A stretch of 31,822 nucleotides of DNA from positions 1 through 31,822 of IMG/VR virus record IMGVR_UViG_3300020042_008321; one strand, written 5' to 3'. Source of the stretch: a virus. Lineage: Duplodnaviria; Caudoviricetes. Position 1 is the stretch's first letter, and the number at the start of each line of letters is the position of its first letter. The notes beneath the pieces were generated by a model. That model was not told the DNA's origin. It made no database searches and saw only the letters and a list, made by a program, of their open reading frames with translations. The translations under genes were made by a program, and so were the position numbers. This document shows positions 4,249 to 31,822 of the stretch, one piece after another.

Positions 4249-5544
4249 ATGTACTTCATCATTGAAAATAAAGAGCAGTTAGATCGTTTAGAAGTGTCGG
4301 ATCAGTCATTCATTCAAATAGTTACTTCAAATGATTATTATCATTCTAAGTTAACTAGAGTTAGTTTAGTTTATTATAATAATTCTAAGAAAGGCTATGT
4401 ATTTGTAATTAATCACTGTGAAGGATTCTCACTAGATCTTAAACTAGTTGAAGAGTTTTTGCAAAAGCATACTAAGGTTTACTTACTAGATAAGAAAATG
4501 CACTCATATTTTCTTGATCTTCCTCAAGCTATTGACGTACAATTCATTTGTATAGATAAAAATAATGAGTATAGCTCTTTTGAATGTAATACTCCGGTCC
4601 ATAGAGACTTTTATATGAGGTATCCTGTAATGCCAACTATAAATGAAGTACTACCGATATCTAAACACTATCAAAAGTGCGAGTGTCTTTACAAAATGGT
4701 AAAAGACTACTTTGAATTAGAGATGGATATAGATCTTCAAGAGAAGTTAGTAGATGCTTATAAACATGTTGAAGAAACAGGAATACAAGTAGATCTTTCA
4801 TGCCTAAATAAAAAATACCAATTCCAGCACCCAGAATACTCACTCTTAGGAAATACTATCTATTCTAATTATAATTTATATAATTTAACAGCAAGACCAA
4901 CTAATTCTTTTAACGGAGTTAACTTTCTAGCAATTCCTAAAGACAAAGACTTTAGAGAGTGTTTTGTACCAAAGAATGACTATTTAGTTGAGTTTGACTT
5001 TGATGCTTACCACTTAAGATTGATATCTAGGTTAATTAGGTTTGAGCCGCCTAAAGATTCAATGCACAACTACCTTGGACGCGCATATTTCAACGTGGCT
5101 GAGCTTACTGATGAACAGTATAAAGAATCAAAGGCCATTACATTTAAGCAGCTCTATGGCGGTATAGAACCACAATATAAAGATATAGACTTCTTTAAGT
5201 CTCTAGATGAATATATAAACAATGAGTGGAAAAAGTATAATGCGCACAAAGCTTCTGTACTACCTACAGGAAGGATCTTAAAAAAGCTTCCTGGTATGAA
5301 TAAGCTCAAATTGTTTAATTATATTATCCAGAACCTGGAGACTAAAGAGAACATCTATAAGATTTTGGAGATCAATAAACTTCTCAGTAATAAGAAAACA
5401 AAGCTAATCTTGATCACATACGATTCTTTCTTATTTGACTTCTCTAAAGAAGATGATAAAAACACGCTAAAAAACATTAAAACAATACTAGAGGGCGGAA
5501 ATATGGTAGTTAAACATAAGTACGGAGTAAACTACGCTTTCTAA
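4249..5544 (+). CDS. Short, degenerate family A DNA polymerase-like protein
   Basis: TARPT (cf. TGRLS), motif A-like EFDFDAYHLRL, motif B-like YKESKAITFKQLYGG, FNYIIQ and motif C-like ITYDSFLFD. Only 431 aa, with no recognisable DxE exonuclease motif. Confidence 0.8.
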   Translation: MYFIIENKEQLDRLEVSDQSFIQIVTSNDYYHSKLTRVSLVYYNNSKKGYVFVINHCEGFSLDLKLVEEFLQKHTKVYLLDKKMHSYFLDLPQAIDVQFICIDKNNEYSSFECNTPVHRDFYMRYPVMPTINEVLPISKHYQKCECLYKMVKDYFELEMDIDLQEKLVDAYKHVEETGIQVDLSCLNKKYQFQHPEYSLLGNTIYSNYNLYNLTARPTNSFNGVNFLAIPKDKDFRECFVPKNDYLVEFDFDAYHLRLISRLIRFEPPKDSMHNYLGRAYFNVAELTDEQYKESKAITFKQLYGGIEPQYKDIDFFKSLDEYINNEWKKYNAHKASVLPTGRILKKLPGMNKLKLFNYIIQNLETKENIYKILEINKLLSNKKTKLILITYDSFLFDFSKEDDKNTLKNIKTILEGGNMVVKHKYGVNYAF

Positions 5545-13177: not shown

Positions 13178-15481
13178 ATGAATAAAAGTTATGTGACAGT
13201 TGATTCGATAGACAAGCTTAAAGATCTAATCGAACATGTAAAGGCGTGCGATATCATTGCGTTTGATACAGAGACAAATAGTCTTAATCCTCGTAAAGGT
13301 AAAATCATTGGCTTCTCAGTATCAGGTGAAGAAGGAAAAGGTTACTACATGCCAACTATGATATTCAAAGATGAAGAGTTGCAAGACGCTTATATCGATG
13401 GTAAATTATGTCATGATCTTGCAAAGAAAACAATCTCACTACTTATTGGTAAAAAGTTGATCATGCATAATGCATCATTTGACGTTAAGTTCGTCAAGTG
13501 TTTTTATGATGTTGATTTGCTTTCTAGTTTGTATGTTGATACGATTCTCTTAGTGCATACAGTAAAAGAAGAAGGCGCTGGCTTTATGGGAGGCTCTGCA
13601 TTCGGTCTTAAGGATATTGCTAAAATGATCCAAAAAGAGATAGGTCTAGATATTGATAAAGCAGCTAATGAAGAACAAGTTGCTCTTAAAGAGTCTATCA
13701 AAAAGAACGGCGGTCAAATAACAAGAGAAAACTATGAGATATGGAAAGCCGATCTTGAACTACTTTCAGAATATGCTTCAGCAGATACCGACTTAACTCT
13801 TAGAGTCTATAATCACTTCATAAAGACTTTGTATGCTGAAGGACTAGAAGACTTCTTCTTTAAGGATGAGGTTATGCCTCTTTACAAAGAGGTTACAATT
13901 CCTATGGAACAAGTAGGCGTTAAACTTGATCTTGAGCTTATTAAAAGTTCTAGAGAGTCTATTGGGCAAAAGCTAAAAGAGTACGAAGAGCTAGTAACAA
14001 AAGAATTGCTTAAAAGCCCTGATGTAAGAGCTTGGATTGTAATGAAAGCAATGGATGCATATCCAGCTAATAATAAAGGCACATTTGCTCAAGAGCTTAT
14101 TAAAGAATATAATTACGAACTAGAACAATCTGCTAGAACAGGAAAGTATAGCATTACTAAGTCATCACTCATAAGACTTCCTGAAGGATCAGCAAAACAC
14201 TTCTTACTACACGGAGATCCTTCTGTACTTGATAAAGACATAGTAATGAAGATTGCTATGAAACTGTGGAGAGAAGATAATGATGGAGCATATTTTAATA
14301 TTCAGTCTAAAGATCAATTAGGTGAAATAGCATTCGGTGTTCTTGGTATTAAATCTTTGTCTAATACAAAAACAGGTAAGCCACAATTTGATGATGATAC
14401 TGTGCAATCAATAGCCGGTAAATATGCGTGGGCTAGAAACTTACGCATCTATAATAGGCTACTTAAGATAAAGTCTACTTACATGGATCGCTTTTTAGAT
14501 GCTCAAGAAGAGGGTAGATATTACTTCTATTATAAACAGCATGGCACAGTATCAGGAAGATATGGTTCTGATGCTCAACAATTACCAAGACCTAAAGAAG
14601 AGGGTGATGATGAACCAATTGTAATCGAGTACAATAACTTGATTCGAGCATTCTTTATTCATGATAGTGGAAACATCTTTATTGATTGTGACTATGAATC
14701 ACTTGAACCGCATACATTTGCTCACGTATCTGGTGATGAAGGACTTAAAGACATCTTTAGAAATAACTGGGACTTCTATTCTACTATTGCAATTAAAACA
14801 GAGGGGCTAACTCAATATTCACCTGATAAAAAAGCTCCTAACTTCCTACGTAAGATGGAACCTAAGCTTAGGAATAAAGCTAAAGCTTATTCACTTGGTA
14901 TTCCTTATGGCATGGGTGCTTATGCACTAGGTATGACTCTTGGAATTCCTACTAAAGAAGCAAAGAAACTTGTTGAGGGTTACTTAAGTGCGTACCCGCA
15001 ACTTAAAGAGTGGATGGAAAGATCTAAAAAGCAGGCAAAGACTGTTGGCTTTGTTAAAACACAAGTCGGTAGAGTAAGGCACTTACCTAAAGTAAAAGCT
15101 ATTTACGATAAGATTGGTGATGACCTTCTTGATTGGAATATCAAGAAAGAAATGGAAAGACAATATGGTGTTGATCAAATTAAAAGCCTGTCTAGAGACT
15201 ATATTAATGGATTAAATAACAGTTGCAACGTACAGATCCAAGGTCTAGCGGCTTCAATTGTTAACCGTGCAGCATTAGCCATCAATAGAAAGTTTCAAGA
15301 ACTAGGTATACGCGGCTGGGTATGTGCTCAGATCCATGATCAGTTAGTAATTGAGGTAGACAGCGATAAATCACAAGAAGCGGCCAGAATCGTCCAGGAT
15401 TTAATGGAGAACACTACTAAGCTGAGCATAGCTTTAAAAGCACCCCCAGCATTAGCAATGAACTTACGCGACGGACATTAG
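13178..15481 (+). CDS. polA: Family A DNA polymerase with 3'-5' exonuclease domain
   Basis: ExoI AFDTET, ExoII HNASFD, ExoIII YASAD, GTVSGRY, motif A DYESLE, motif B RNKAKAYSLGIPYG and motif C QIHDQ. Confidence 0.95.
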   Translation: MNKSYVTVDSIDKLKDLIEHVKACDIIAFDTETNSLNPRKGKIIGFSVSGEEGKGYYMPTMIFKDEELQDAYIDGKLCHDLAKKTISLLIGKKLIMHNASFDVKFVKCFYDVDLLSSLYVDTILLVHTVKEEGAGFMGGSAFGLKDIAKMIQKEIGLDIDKAANEEQVALKESIKKNGGQITRENYEIWKADLELLSEYASADTDLTLRVYNHFIKTLYAEGLEDFFFKDEVMPLYKEVTIPMEQVGVKLDLELIKSSRESIGQKLKEYEELVTKELLKSPDVRAWIVMKAMDAYPANNKGTFAQELIKEYNYELEQSARTGKYSITKSSLIRLPEGSAKHFLLHGDPSVLDKDIVMKIAMKLWREDNDGAYFNIQSKDQLGEIAFGVLGIKSLSNTKTGKPQFDDDTVQSIAGKYAWARNLRIYNRLLKIKSTYMDRFLDAQEEGRYYFYYKQHGTVSGRYGSDAQQLPRPKEEGDDEPIVIEYNNLIRAFFIHDSGNIFIDCDYESLEPHTFAHVSGDEGLKDIFRNNWDFYSTIAIKTEGLTQYSPDKKAPNFLRKMEPKLRNKAKAYSLGIPYGMGAYALGMTLGIPTKEAKKLVEGYLSAYPQLKEWMERSKKQAKTVGFVKTQVGRVRHLPKVKAIYDKIGDDLLDWNIKKEMERQYGVDQIKSLSRDYINGLNNSCNVQIQGLAASIVNRAALAINRKFQELGIRGWVCAQIHDQLVIEVDSDKSQEAARIVQDLMENTTKLSIALKAPPALAMNLRDGH

Positions 15482-15501: not shown

Positions 15502-16009
15502 GGGTACTGTGAGTAGGCCCAAGGTTATGAATAAACATTTATAAATCGTTTACCGTAAGGGAACACAAAACTAAACACTATGGGAATATTAAGACCATTT
15601 GAGCTAGATCCATTTGACTTGCTCTGGAAAGACCTTTTTGAATCAGTACCTCACTTTTCTGCAATTACGCAGAAAATATCACATCCAGTAGACATTTTTG
15701 AAACAGAAGACGGCATTCGATTTGAAGTAGCCGCAGTAGGCCTCGATAAGAGTGATATTAGTATCATTATCGAAGGAGACCAATTACGTATTACTTACGA
15801 AAAACCAAACAAACCTGAAGAATCTCCAATTTACCGGGGTATTAAGAGATCATCTTTTAATTTGACTTGGAAGATTTCAACTAAATTCGATCTAAGTAAG
15901 CTTGACGCTTCGTTAGATAAGGGACTACTTATATTAACAGTTCCTACAGCAGAAGGTAAAGCTGTAAAACAAATAGTTATAAAATAAAAAATAGGCCTAC
16001 TCACAACCC
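15502..16009. repeat. Inverted repeat pair flanking hsp20
   Basis: TGTGAGTAGGCC (15508-15519) is the exact reverse complement of GGCCTACTCACA (15994-16005). The pairing extends with GGGT (15502-15505)/ACCC (16006-16009) across a 2-nt bulge. Confidence 0.85.
15580..15987 (+). CDS. Small heat shock protein (Hsp20/alpha-crystallin)
   Basis: PVDIFETEDG..FEVAAVG, RGI..SSF, A.LDKGLL.LTVP and a C-terminal I-x-I motif. Confidence 0.92.
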   Translation: MGILRPFELDPFDLLWKDLFESVPHFSAITQKISHPVDIFETEDGIRFEVAAVGLDKSDISIIIEGDQLRITYEKPNKPEESPIYRGIKRSSFNLTWKISTKFDLSKLDASLDKGLLILTVPTAEGKAVKQIVIK

Positions 16010-16014
16010 TAGTT

Positions 16015-16209
16015 ATGTTTTCACTTTGTAAGAATTTCATCAATATTAATGGAGATCTGTTTCAAGTTAAACGTACATTTACTGAAGAGTGGATGAACGG
16101 AAAGGATCTAGACGTATTAAAAACTTGGTACGGAGCAGATGTAGTCTTTAAAAAAGATACGCTACTCTATTTTTGTATTAAAATAAATGAATTAGAAATT
16201 ATAAATTAG
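16015..16209 (+). CDS. Small hypothetical protein
   Basis: 64-aa ORF with a GTT-ATG start, between hsp20 and groES. Confidence 0.55.
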   Translation: MFSLCKNFININGDLFQVKRTFTEEWMNGKDLDVLKTWYGADVVFKKDTLLYFCIKINELEIIN

Positions 16210-16213
16210 TAAT

Positions 16214-16504
16214 ATGAAAAAAATAACCCCACTAAATGGCTATGTAGTACTAAAGCCAATAGAATCACAAGAAGAAACATTTGGTAACATTATCATTCCA
16301 GATCTTGGTAAAGAAAGGCCTGAAATGGGAGAAGTATTTGCAACATCTGATATTTACAATTATCATACTGATAAATTGGTTATATCAACATTAGAAATTG
16401 GAGAGATTGCGCTAATTCCTAAAATGGGATCACAAAGAATAGTAGTAGACGGAGAAGACTATTACATTTGTAGAGAGTCAGAAATATTTGCAGTAATTAA
16501 ATAA
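16214..16504 (+). CDS. groES: Co-chaperonin GroES
   Basis: ITPLNGYVVLK, mobile loop GNIIIPD...KERPEMGEV and Y.ICRESEIFA; directly upstream of groEL. Confidence 0.9.
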   Translation: MKKITPLNGYVVLKPIESQEETFGNIIIPDLGKERPEMGEVFATSDIYNYHTDKLVISTLEIGEIALIPKMGSQRIVVDGEDYYICRESEIFAVIK

Positions 16505-16512
16505 AATAAACT

Positions 16513-18144
16513 ATGAGTACAACTAAAAACGTTTTTGGTACAGAGCTTAAAGAAAAGCTACTGTCCGGTATAGAAAAGCTAAATGCCTCAGTTTCATCAA
16601 CATTAGGACCAGGCGGTCGTACTGTTTTGATTCGTGAACAAAATGGCGAAGTTAAAGTTACAAAGGATGGAGTAACTGTTGCAAAAGCATTCCATAAATT
16701 GGAAGATGACATTGAAGATCTTGGTGCACAACTTGTTAAGCAAGTTAGTATTAAGTCTGCTAATGAAGCTGGTGACGGTACAACAACATCTACTTTGATT
16801 GCAACTGAAATTGTAAAGGCAGGACTAAAAGAAATTAGACAAGGTTATAATGCAGTTGAAATTAAAAATGAAATTGATATCATTGTTGCAGAAGTAGTCC
16901 AAGAGATTAAAGATATGTCAATTGAGATCTCTTCTGAAGAGCAAATTAAGCAAGTTGCAACTATATCAGGTAATAATGATTCAGAGGTTGGTAATTTAAT
17001 TGCAACAGCAATTGAGAAAGTAGGTCGTGAAGGTGTTGTCACTATTGAAGAATCTAAAACAGGTGAAACCTCTCTTGAAGTTGTTGAAGGTATGCAATTT
17101 GATCGTGGTTATAAATCACCTTATTTTGTTACTAATAATACTACAATGCAAGCAGGACTTGAAAATCCTTATATCATGTTGTATGATGGACGTATCTCAA
17201 CTGCGCAAGAACTAGTTCAAGTATTAACTAAAGCAAACTCTGAGAATAAGCCACTATTGATTATCGCTGAAGATATTGGTGATGAAGCTCTTGCTACATT
17301 GATCGTAAACAAGATGCGCGGTATTGTTCAAGTTTGTGCAGTTAAAGCACCAGACTTTGGAGACCGTAAGACTTTGATTTTGGAAGACATTGCAATTCTT
17401 ACAGGTGGACAAGTTATCTCTAAAGAGAAAGGCCATAAACTTGATAAGATTACTACTCAGCAATTGGGACAATTCCTAGGTACAGCTAGACTATCTACCG
17501 TCTCTAAAGAAGAGACAACCATTGTAGACGGTAAAGGATCAACTGAAACAATTGAAGCTAGAGCTAAAGAAATTCAAGAGCAAATTGAAAAGGCAACCTC
17601 ATTCTATGAAAAAGAGAAGTTGCAAGAAAGGCTTGGTAAACTTATAGGAGGAGTAGCTATCATCAATGTTGGTGGTAATAGTGATATCGAGATCAAAGAA
17701 AAGAAAGATCGTGTAGAAGACGCACTATTTGCAACTAAAGCAGCATTAGAAGGCGGTGTAGTTCCAGGAGGCGGCTCAGCTTTATATAGGTGTTCGCTTA
17801 ATCACAGACCAGAGCATAATAATAATGTATCTATTGCTAGAGACATTGTACGTAAAGCTTTGCAAGCACCATTTATTAAGATCCTTGCTAATTCTGGCGT
17901 TGAGAACTGGTGGGAATTTACTCCTAGTGAATTAGTAGATGGTAAAATCTATGATGCAAAGAATCATAAAATGGTTAATGCATTTGAAGCTGGTATTATT
18001 GACCCTGCCAAAGTGGTAATTACCGCTCTTAAAAACGCATCTTCTGTAGCCGGGACAATCCTAACAACAGAAAGTGTTATTTTTGAAAAGAAAGATAAAA
18101 GTGAGAAATCAGACCCTATGATGGATATGACAATGGGAATGTAA
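16513..18144 (+). CDS. groEL: Chaperonin GroEL
   Basis: [45 protein letters not shown] and GVVPGGG. Confidence 0.98.
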
Positions 18145-29458: not shown

Positions 29459-29843
29459 GGGCCTGACTGGAATTGATCCGGTTGTTGAGATTGCACCACA
29501 TGCAGGCGTTTGGTAGAGTCGCCTTAGAAAACTGCAAACAATAACTGACGAAATGTCAACAATGACCTTCGATGACCTTATGGCCTTCGTTGGTGCCGAT
29601 TACGCTGTAGCAGCCTAGTCCGCAAACGGGTGAGTAACCTAGGAACAGAACTACTCCGAGCGCTCACGATCGACTCGTTAAATAAAGACTGTGGATTAGT
29701 TTTCTTGATAGTCATAAAATCAAGTGGTGGAAACGACCATAATGGTCCGCCCCTACTGATCAAAAGAAATTTAGATCTAAGCATGTGAAACGTTGGTGTT
29801 ATTGTCGCTATCGGAGACGAGAGTTCGAATCTCTCCAGGTCCA
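29459..29843 (+). ncRNA. ssrA: tmRNA
   Basis: The 5' GGGCCTG pairs with the 3' CAGGTCC-A and includes the G3:U alanine identity pair. T-arm GAGAG-TTCGAAT-CTCTC. After ATAACT, the tag frame 29547-29618 reads DEMSTMTFDDLMAFVGADYAVAA*. Confidence 0.93.
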
Positions 29844-30548: not shown

Positions 30549-30620
30549 TGCGAGGTAGAGCAGCGGTAGCTCGGCGGGCTCATAACCCGTAGGTCGCAGG
30601 TTCGATTCCTGCCCTCGCTA
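30549..30620 (+). tRNA. tRNA-Met(CAT), initiator type
   Basis: Full cloverleaf with anticodon CAT at 30581-30583. Initiator features: three consecutive G-C pairs in the anticodon stem, an unpaired 1:72 position and A11:U24. CCA is not encoded. Confidence 0.92.
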
Positions 30621-30641
30621 CTAATTAATCCCCCTTATAAA

Positions 30642-31418: not shown

Positions 31419-31430
31419 GTCTTATATTTG
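31419..31430 (+). promoter_or_regulatory. Bacteroidetes-type promoter element
   Basis: GTCTTATATTTG, 20 nt upstream of the ATG at 31451. Confidence 0.6.
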
Positions 31431-31450: not shown

Positions 31451-31669
31451 ATGATATATACAATTTGGATCATTAGCGTTATTTACTGTATAATTAAAAT
31501 GTACAGATCCTACAATAAGAAAGAAATAGATCCAGTTTACGCTACACCAGGTCTAGAGACCCTAGCAATCGTAGTAATGGCGCCAGTTCTAATGGCAGTA
31601 GACGCAACTCTTACATGGGTTCATAAGTTTAAAGAATACAGAGAAGAAAAACAAGATAAGATCTTTTAG
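31451..31669 (+). CDS. Small membrane protein
   Basis: 72 aa with two hydrophobic segments. Confidence 0.55.
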   Translation: MIYTIWIISVIYCIIKMYRSYNKKEIDPVYATPGLETLAIVVMAPVLMAVDATLTWVHKFKEYREEKQDKIF

Positions 31670-31674
31670 TTAAT

Positions 31675-31822
31675 TATCAGGTGGTGAAAGGATATATCCA
31701 AGGCATACACACCCTCTCGTCTCGAGGGCGCTGAATATGAGACAGGTAACTGGATATGGGTTGACCACAAGCGTACGCATTTTGTCCACTACTGAATTAC
31801 AGCATGAAGGTTCGACTCCTTC
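31675..31822 (+). ncRNA. Atypical tRNA-like RNA with expanded D-loop and very large variable arm; 3' end cut by the window edge
   Basis: D-stem GTG/CAC, anticodon stem CCCTC/GAGGG, variable stem GCTG/CAGC enclosing about 66 nt, and T-arm GAAGG-TTCGACT-CCTTC. Confidence 0.7.

Follow-up and report, generated by a model that had tools for sequence, protein, structure and literature searches.

A widespread tRNA-like RNA with aspartate identity marks and a giant variable arm in Bacteroidota and their large phages

The last 148 bases of the virus record IMGVR_UViG_3300020042_008321 (31675..31822, plus strand) are filled by a tRNA-like RNA that is real and conserved and has apparently not been described before; 148 of its approximately 157 nt are present. 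The record is a single contig of 31.8 kb that was analysed at its full length (31,822 nt) and is called the window below. Relatives of this RNA occur in other phages and in the chromosomes of Bacteroidota. We propose, with about as much confidence as doubt, that the RNA is a non-decoding carrier for asparagine synthesis that was captured by phages. No description of it was found in published full texts, mostly open-access and taken without supplements, including PMC8421152.

The preliminary description of this locus had recognized a tRNA-like scaffold, and all sequences that it named lie at the positions it gave. The 5' acceptor strand (31675..31681, plus strand) starts with U1, which pairs with A72 in the homologs; the window copy has A2, and the family mostly G2 (G2-C71 in 123 of 127 viral rows). 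It is followed by a D arm of the tRNA-Leu type (31682..31711, plus strand) with a 3-bp stem, A14, A15, G18 G19 and A20a. The insert reported in the D-loop is present at 31690..31699 (plus strand) as a perfect 10-nt palindrome, and it proved to be an optional, mostly phage feature of the family. The anticodon-like stem-loop (31712..31728, plus strand) has the loop TCGTCTC (31717-31723), that is U32 C33 G34 U35 C36 U37 C38, with the aspartate marks and a non-purine at position 37. The loop had been called non-canonical for lacking both U33 and a purine at 37, and in the window it lacks both; U37 is a trait of the whole family and the lack of U33 that of a subtype. The element ends with a 77-nt variable arm (31729..31805, plus strand), delimited by covariance and RNAalifold, and a canonical T arm (31806..31822, plus strand). 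Overall this is a 7/5 cloverleaf with a 7-bp acceptor stem, a 5-bp T stem, a T-loop and G18 G19.

From its foot, the variable arm consists of a 4-bp helix, an A-rich bulge, a 3-bp helix, a conserved asymmetric internal loop, a helix of about 9 bp and a terminal junction. The A-rich asymmetric internal loop resembles an S-turn. A long arm of nested stems had been predicted and a long covarying arm is indeed present, but two of the proposed stems, GGT/ACC and GCG/CGC, would need 2-nt loops. In their place the homologs have a conserved 9-nt loop closed by a G-C pair (31758..31768, loop 31759-31767, plus strand), which is missing in short host paralogs, and a perfect 8-nt palindrome at the arm tip (31771..31778, plus strand) with flanking A residues, a predicted site of dimerisation by kissing.

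Because the window is the entire contig, the 3' acceptor strand cannot be read in it; the contig ends at 31822, and the acceptor strand, G73 and C74 of this copy lie past its end, as the preliminary description had supposed. The nearest homolog (L015) is complete, identical to the window copy at 147 of 148 nt, and continues with CCTGATA-G-C, which provides the anticipated complementary acceptor strand, G73 and C74. CCA is not encoded. Our covariance model scores the 3'-truncated window copy at 102 bits. Existing tools do not recognize the RNA: the window copy receives no ARAGORN call and no Rfam match, including RF00005; among the Rfam 15 covariance models no family matches the window or ten host loci; and a partial tRNA-Glu call in one of 40 host loci is the only recognition by ARAGORN or RF00005.

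The window encodes GroEL, a homing endonuclease and proteins of phage replication, together with a tmRNA and a tRNA-Met, and its proteins contain 6.3% asparagine. The tmRNA gene (29459..29843, plus strand) belongs to the same stable-RNA region as the tRNA-like RNA, and the tRNA-Met(CAT) gene (30549..30621, plus strand) forms part of its context. Between 29459 and 30621, the tmRNA with its 23-residue tag is followed by the homing endonuclease gene (PHROG 314), inserted ahead of tRNA-Met; similar tmRNAs were seen in L001, L005, L369 and L370. A full family A polymerase and a second ORF with weak similarity to PolA together occupy 4249-5544 and 13178-15481, and the window also has phage Hsp20 and GroEL genes, with 15580-18144 among their coordinates. 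A 72-codon ORF (31451-31669) has its stop 5 nt upstream of the tRNA-like RNA and is preceded by a box (31423..31430, plus strand) that presumably matches the Bacteroidota-type -7 promoter consensus. The ORF and the tRNA-like RNA are probably co-transcribed.

Viral relatives were collected by three pattern scans of IMG/VR and from one GenBank phage. They comprise at least 219 occurrences, or at least 128 distinct full-length elements of 142-177 nt; for one of the scans about 240 stretches were estimated and nine matches were discarded as fragments or false. BLAST against records of isolated phages gave only T-arm matches and one unannotated 636-kb phage. In the latter (L228:2192-2372; L369:7425-7509) we also observed 88-nt tRNA-Asn and tRNA-Thr calls with class II-like arms; in phage G004 a Ser-type tRNA bears the anticodon ACT. 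Some viral elements (L016:505-675, L131, L012, L064, L205, L222) have longer D-loop inserts, which form hairpins bearing a sequence nearly identical to that of the anticodon loop and so look like an additional anticodon-like loop.

The fold of the RNA is real and stands above chance. When 48 diverse copies from phages and hosts were aligned with MAFFT, 96.5% of 1,809 cells of the cloverleaf and arm were paired, and both sides had changed in 30 of the 38 pairs. There are 390 compensatory cells, compared to 104 +/- 12 in shuffled alignments and 22-75 in slid controls. The same helices were recovered independently by RNAalifold. The single-strand fold of the window copy alone is unremarkable (z +1.05).

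The pseudoknot between the anticodon loop (GTCTC) and GAGAC in the variable arm (31739-31743), which was central to the preliminary description, did not withstand this analysis and was dropped. It shows no compensatory changes, and its pairing (82.5%) is not in excess over shuffled alignments (82.9%). A perfect five-base match occurs in three of 128 viral copies, and the commonest form (53 copies) is mismatched in the centre. Two of the five GAGAC bases belong to the covarying 3-bp helix, and the sequence also overlaps the conserved A-rich internal loop. Short host paralogs lack the partner sequence and keep the anticodon loop. A three-base GUC:GAY core can be formed in 32 of the 48 rows and is possible in the window copy. 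The alternative of GUC pairing with GAC of the 9-nt loop is not required, as short paralogs without that loop keep GUC; covariation is uninformative here because neither side ever varies, and no variants of this GAC were seen in two viral scans.

A scan of GTDB genomes gave at least 120 host loci (about 880 stretches estimated). All 80 host loci listed belong to Bacteroidota, among them Pedobacter, Chitinophaga, Aquirufa, Cyclobacteriaceae and Saprospiraceae, and they contain 114 matches of the covariance model. Host copies include tandem short paralogs of 108-125 nt, which lack the 9-nt loop and retain the anticodon loop, the acceptor and the internal loop; the helices and loops of the arm are conserved from the 108-nt to the 213-nt forms. 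Tandem copies are frequent in hosts (L253:1243-1571, L256, L231, L258, L250); the short form precedes the long one in Pedobacter, and Saprospiraceae have up to three long copies in tandem. The best matches of the covariance model among ordinary tRNAs are tRNA-Leu, so the body of the RNA is likely Leu-derived.

The host RNA is frequently found next to a gene for an AsnC-like regulator, which lies divergently upstream in 51 of the 80 listed host loci. Such a gene is near the RNA in 24 of 27 loci of the class sample described below and in none of 20 viral loci. The best NCBIfam model was AsnC in all six proteins tested, with scores below the cut-off, and the nearest solved structure is AsnC 2cg4. 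In one RNA-negative genome (G111) an AsnC-like gene faces asnB. A search beside the AsnC-like gene yielded no RNA in seven RNA-negative genomes, nor in three carriers that have the RNA elsewhere. In two related carriers (G001:C17, G011:C2) asnS lies 6-7 kb from the RNA.

Identity marks were counted in 89 phage copies, obtained with a pattern that fixes neither the anticodon nor the acceptor end, and in 110 host rows, in which positions 71-74 were predetermined by the search pattern. The counts exclude two viral rows whose 5' ends had been mis-called (L023, L096), as well as four host matches that were partial or false. In the phage copies G34 U35 C36, G73 and C74 are invariant (89/89 each), U1 and A72 are present in 88, U37 in 87 and C38 in 82. 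In the host rows U1, G34, U35, C36, U37 and C38 are each found in 110 of 110. C33 is present in 53 of the 89 phage copies and nine of the 110 host copies, U33 in the other 101 host copies; in phages C33 travels with the D-loop insert (50 of 89 have C33 and the insert, 30 have U33 and no insert). A20a is found in 126 of 127 viral rows and all 110 host rows. A few host copies (L362, L366, L340, L352) alter position 34 to U or A or position 37 to C, the position-34 variants being short-arm forms.

In the accessible text of PMC9976931, G73, G34, U35, C36 and C38 are the five strong aspartate determinants, and G1-C72 helps E. coli AspRS. The window copy, with G73 taken from the homolog L015, fits all five; the minor bacterial marks G1-C72 and G2-C71 are not seen, as the family has U1-A72 and the window copy A2. 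U1-A72 is described in the part of PMC1635274 available to us as the determinant for bacterial GatCAB, for which C36 matters little, and tRNA-Asp given U1-A72 becomes amidatable. The same source names nucleotide 20a as an anti-determinant, in Neisseria at an approximately 100-fold cost and also in Thermus. The RNA has the U1-A72 mark; its D loop is not of the short kind that lacks 20a. That nucleotide is likewise found in Bacteroidia tRNA-Asn, and U1-A72 in the host tRNA-Asn of all genomes read, whether or not they carry the RNA. The tail of GatB contacts the D loop and the variable loop (PMC2811023, accessible text), the very sites at which phage copies are enlarged by an 11-29-nt D-loop insert and the giant arm. 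A purine at position 37 favours binding to the A site (PMC8007984, accessible text). The suggestion that this is a non-decoding tRNA mimic is supported by the near-invariant U37, the 40-110-nt arm and the presence of a separate, ordinary tRNA-Asp in related phages. The last observation also led us to drop a replacement of tRNA-Asp as the role of the RNA.

We analysed the distribution of the RNA in 149 genomes of Bacteroidia, using a covariance-model search in which the best 20-21 candidates per genome were scored; all RNA frequencies given here rest on such genome samples, and G232 counts as one RNA-negative row. At least 27 of the 149 class genomes and at least 15 of 151 genomes of a phylum-wide sample are carriers. 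GatB was found in all 27 carriers compared to 109 of 149 genomes overall, and in 15 of 15 carriers of the phylum sample. AsnA or E. coli-type AsnB was found in none of the 27 carriers compared to 23 of 149 genomes overall (AsnA in 6, AsnB in 20). A close AsnC-like group (at least 150 bits) is present in 33 genomes, namely all 27 carriers and six others, four of which have AsnA or AsnB. The carriers show no enrichment in AsnRS (23 of 27 vs 115 of 149), and four of the 27 have no AsnRS match. The carriers cluster on a weakly resolved AspRS tree (14 changes compared to 22 when shuffled, with only two forced), and therefore Fisher p-values for these contrasts overstate the independence of the genomes and are inflated.

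Among the 18 genomes having GatB, GlnRS and AsnRS, 13 carry the RNA, four have a GatB-AspRS fusion and one has neither. The fusion is encoded by one ORF (about 1,110 residues) in G187, G223, G255 and G283 (for example G223:C47:25678-28953; L488-L491). These four genomes gave no RNA even on a deeper search, and a deeper search of ten RNA-negative genomes yielded tRNA-length matches only. The four fusion genomes also have a normal AspRS, GlnRS and AsnRS, the fused domain being a second AspRS. A histidine that we take to be a mark of non-discriminating AspRS is found in the fused domain of all four and in none of 26 carriers; it is also absent from 14 of 14 controls without detected AsnRS. The RNA is absent from all 38 GlnRS-positive genomes that lack GatB. 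It is present in 14 of 91 genomes that have GatB and lack GlnRS; 73 of these 91 have neither the RNA nor detected AsnA or AsnB, and 20 of 38 GatB-negative genomes lack both synthetases. Such genomes therefore have another route to asparagine or their enzymes were incompletely detected. A specialized GatB in carriers was considered and rejected, as the low GatB scores seen at the phylum level vanished within the class. Seven genomes (G105, G109, G101, G045, G057, G061, G149) have a second, weak GatB_N match in ORFs of 640-670 residues, possibly GatE-like proteins in bacteria.

Phage copies have palindromic loops more often than host copies. Of 128 viral copies, 120 have a perfect palindrome of at least 6 nt (6-12 nt) at the tip of the arm, compared to 25 of 110 host copies; the viral palindromes comprise 14 different cores. 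Among distinct viral tips 59 of 65 are palindromic vs 12.7 +/- 3.1 (maximum 24) after shuffling, and control windows give three of 79. The D-loop inserts, 11-29 nt long, contain palindromes in 39 of 64 cases vs 12.1 after shuffling. Both the D loop and the tip are palindromic in 59 of 127 viral rows, the window copy among them; the two share a core in none of these 59, and about 1.3 would be expected by chance, so the difference is not significant. Self-complementarity of the loop is thus kept through sequence change, as in kissing loops. Intermolecular pairing, or dimerisation, is the likely role of the palindromes, because no hairpin loop would fit at their centres; palindrome formation by mutation at the DNA level is a possible other origin. 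The dimer is predicted to be only slightly more stable than tip-shuffled versions (-13.3 vs -10.9 kcal/mol).

In lake RNA libraries, short contigs approximately 90% similar to the Aquirufa copy cover the element only. Word depth on this Aquirufa-like element was 137-1,500 in two of four runs and 0-6 on its flanks; contigs of this kind show neither expression level nor strand. One of them ends in adapter sequence at its 3' end. The window copy was not covered by RNA contigs of the four runs, and tmRNA relatives were, which is uninformative either way.

On these grounds we consider that the RNA may well function like the tRNA-Asn of the indirect pathway, outside translation; we hold this as an even proposition, ahead of the regulatory reading discussed below. 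Counting against it are nucleotide 20a, the enlargement of the two loops contacted by GatB, the lack of G1-C72, A2 in the window copy, the U1-A72 of host tRNA-Asn, the GatB-positive genomes with neither the RNA nor detected AsnA or AsnB, and the carriers with no AsnRS match. The RNA would be processed by RNase P and completed by CCA addition. Host AspRS would load it with aspartate, and host GatCAB would amidate the bound aspartate to asparagine, which might be freed by spontaneous deacylation or by some hydrolase and would feed AsnRS. U37 and the arm would keep the RNA off the ribosome. In the host, AsnC would control the RNA gene. The phage copy, lying in a tRNA/tmRNA cluster without an AsnC gene, would give an unregulated supply of asparagine during infection, and phage copies may dimerise through their palindromes. 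GatB was found in none of five phage records, and therefore the enzymes of the host would be used. Four of five phage tRNA-Asn seen start with G1-C72, not U1-A72, and would depend on AsnRS and free asparagine; a BLAST search for host tRNA-Asn with phage queries mostly matched other tRNAs. We speculate, a little more tentatively, that in many Bacteroidota the RNA gene replaces asparagine synthetase under AsnC control, and that phages captured it as a protein-free auxiliary metabolic gene, freed from AsnC and fitted with one or two different palindromic loops for assembly into dimers or larger rings.

The RNA might instead be an AsnC-controlled regulatory mimic that binds AspRS and/or GatCAB as a sponge, a transamidosome scaffold or a sensor of charging state, tuning the tRNA-Asn route without net production of asparagine, with the phage dimer capturing a dimeric synthetase. 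A synthetase regulator had also been named in the preliminary description, and it stays in contention. The identity marks and the gene profile are the same for this reading as for the carrier. U1-A72 is already present in host tRNA-Asn, and therefore a non-discriminating AspRS could make asparagine on ordinary tRNA-Asn, a route proposed for such Bacteroidetes in the accessible text of PMC4206432; nucleotide 20a and the inserts could hinder turnover, and conservation of the loops in the arm hints at a surface to which proteins bind. We nevertheless regard regulation as rather unlikely, since a biosynthetic substitute better explains why the RNA and AsnA, AsnB or the GatB-AspRS fusion exclude one another, and the acceptor end is conserved base by base, like that of a substrate. 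It is improbable that the RNA carries serine or another amino acid into a non-ribosomal pathway. G73 and a long variable arm are what SerRS reads (PMC7609411, accessible text), and in two phages (G003, G004) the gene lies 4-5 nt behind tRNA-Ser(TGA); yet the core is of the Leu type, not the Ser type, and the invariant GUC, U1-A72, the AsnC neighbour and the tie to GatB would be left unexplained.

The preliminary description had offered a decoy for anticodon nucleases as an example. For such a decoy, or one aimed at another anti-phage defence, whether the pseudoknot forms or not, it can be said that the joint appearance of C33 and the D-loop insert in phages could reflect escape from a host enzyme. 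As a main role it is unlikely, because the presence of the RNA tracks GatB and the absence of asparagine synthetases, and we rate it slightly below the serine carrier. The host gene is chromosomal and vertically kept beside AsnC in several orders, the pseudoknot does not covary, and C33 with the insert may mark a single clade. Least probable of all is that the RNA is an unusual tRNA-Asp that still decodes, or a precursor from which the arm is excised to leave an ordinary tRNA. Such a tRNA would account for the complete 7/5 cloverleaf, the GUC anticodon, U33 in most host copies and the location of phage copies in tRNA clusters, but U37 is near-invariant, ordinary tRNA-Asp genes coexist (also in phages G003 and G004), and U1-A72 in GatB-positive hosts would risk asparagine at aspartate codons. 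The arm helices and loops, conserved across the 108-213-nt forms, also speak against this reading, as does, weakly, the lack of a joined form in RNA contigs.

Finders of tRNAs and RNA families have overlooked this widespread stable RNA, both in a major bacterial phylum and in the large phages of that phylum. If the carrier reading is true, it would explain why GatCAB is retained despite GlnRS and AsnRS in genomes without asparagine synthetase, a pattern noted in the accessible text of PMC4206432. It would also make a tRNA a pure metabolic cofactor and provide an RNA-only auxiliary metabolic gene of phages. With their covarying palindromes the phage copies are a simple natural model of how RNA could self-assemble on a tRNA scaffold. 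Kissing-loop dimer sites of the HIV-1 DIS type are reportedly self-complementary loops of 6-10 nt, flanked by A and free to vary in sequence; here it is a tRNA scaffold that bears the palindromes, often two of them whose cores differ, and dimerisation is predicted.

The RNA belongs to none of the families with which we compared it. It shares A14, A15 with U48, G18 G19, 20a and a single unpaired base at the arm's foot with bacterial class II tRNA-Leu, but differs by G73 instead of A73, U1-A72, an Asp-type loop with U37, and an arm that contains internal loops and palindromes and is several times as long. In the available parts of PMC1635274 and PMC4206432, the indirect-pathway tRNA-Asn of Thermus, Deinococcus and Bdellovibrio, served by AspRS and GatCAB, has the same U1-A72 and G73, and PMC4206432 reports the same retention of GatCAB despite AsnRS and GlnRS where AsnA and AsnB are missing. 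Unlike that tRNA, the RNA has GUC instead of GUU, U37, a Leu-type core and a 40-110-nt arm, and its product would not be directly usable for decoding. Y RNAs (YrlA; PMC4201824, accessible text) are likewise tRNA-mimicking non-coding RNAs of bacteria and phages. The present RNA has an ordinary 5'/3' acceptor topology and a true anticodon arm, and a Y RNA was ruled out, as TROVE occurs in two of 15 carriers and Ro60 is not a neighbour. Allo-tRNAs and selC* share the long variable arm, G73, GUC anticodons in some members and occurrence of some in phages, but the acceptor branch of the RNA is 7/5, not 8/4 or 9/3, which rules out this assignment; it comes from Bacteroidota, a word absent from the main text of PMC5389517, where these tRNAs are described. 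The tRNA-Other of Bacillus cereus is, in the accessible text of PMC3399842, also a pseudo-tRNA without a function in translation; it differs in sequence, size and setting from the RNA described here, which is conserved across orders and phages.
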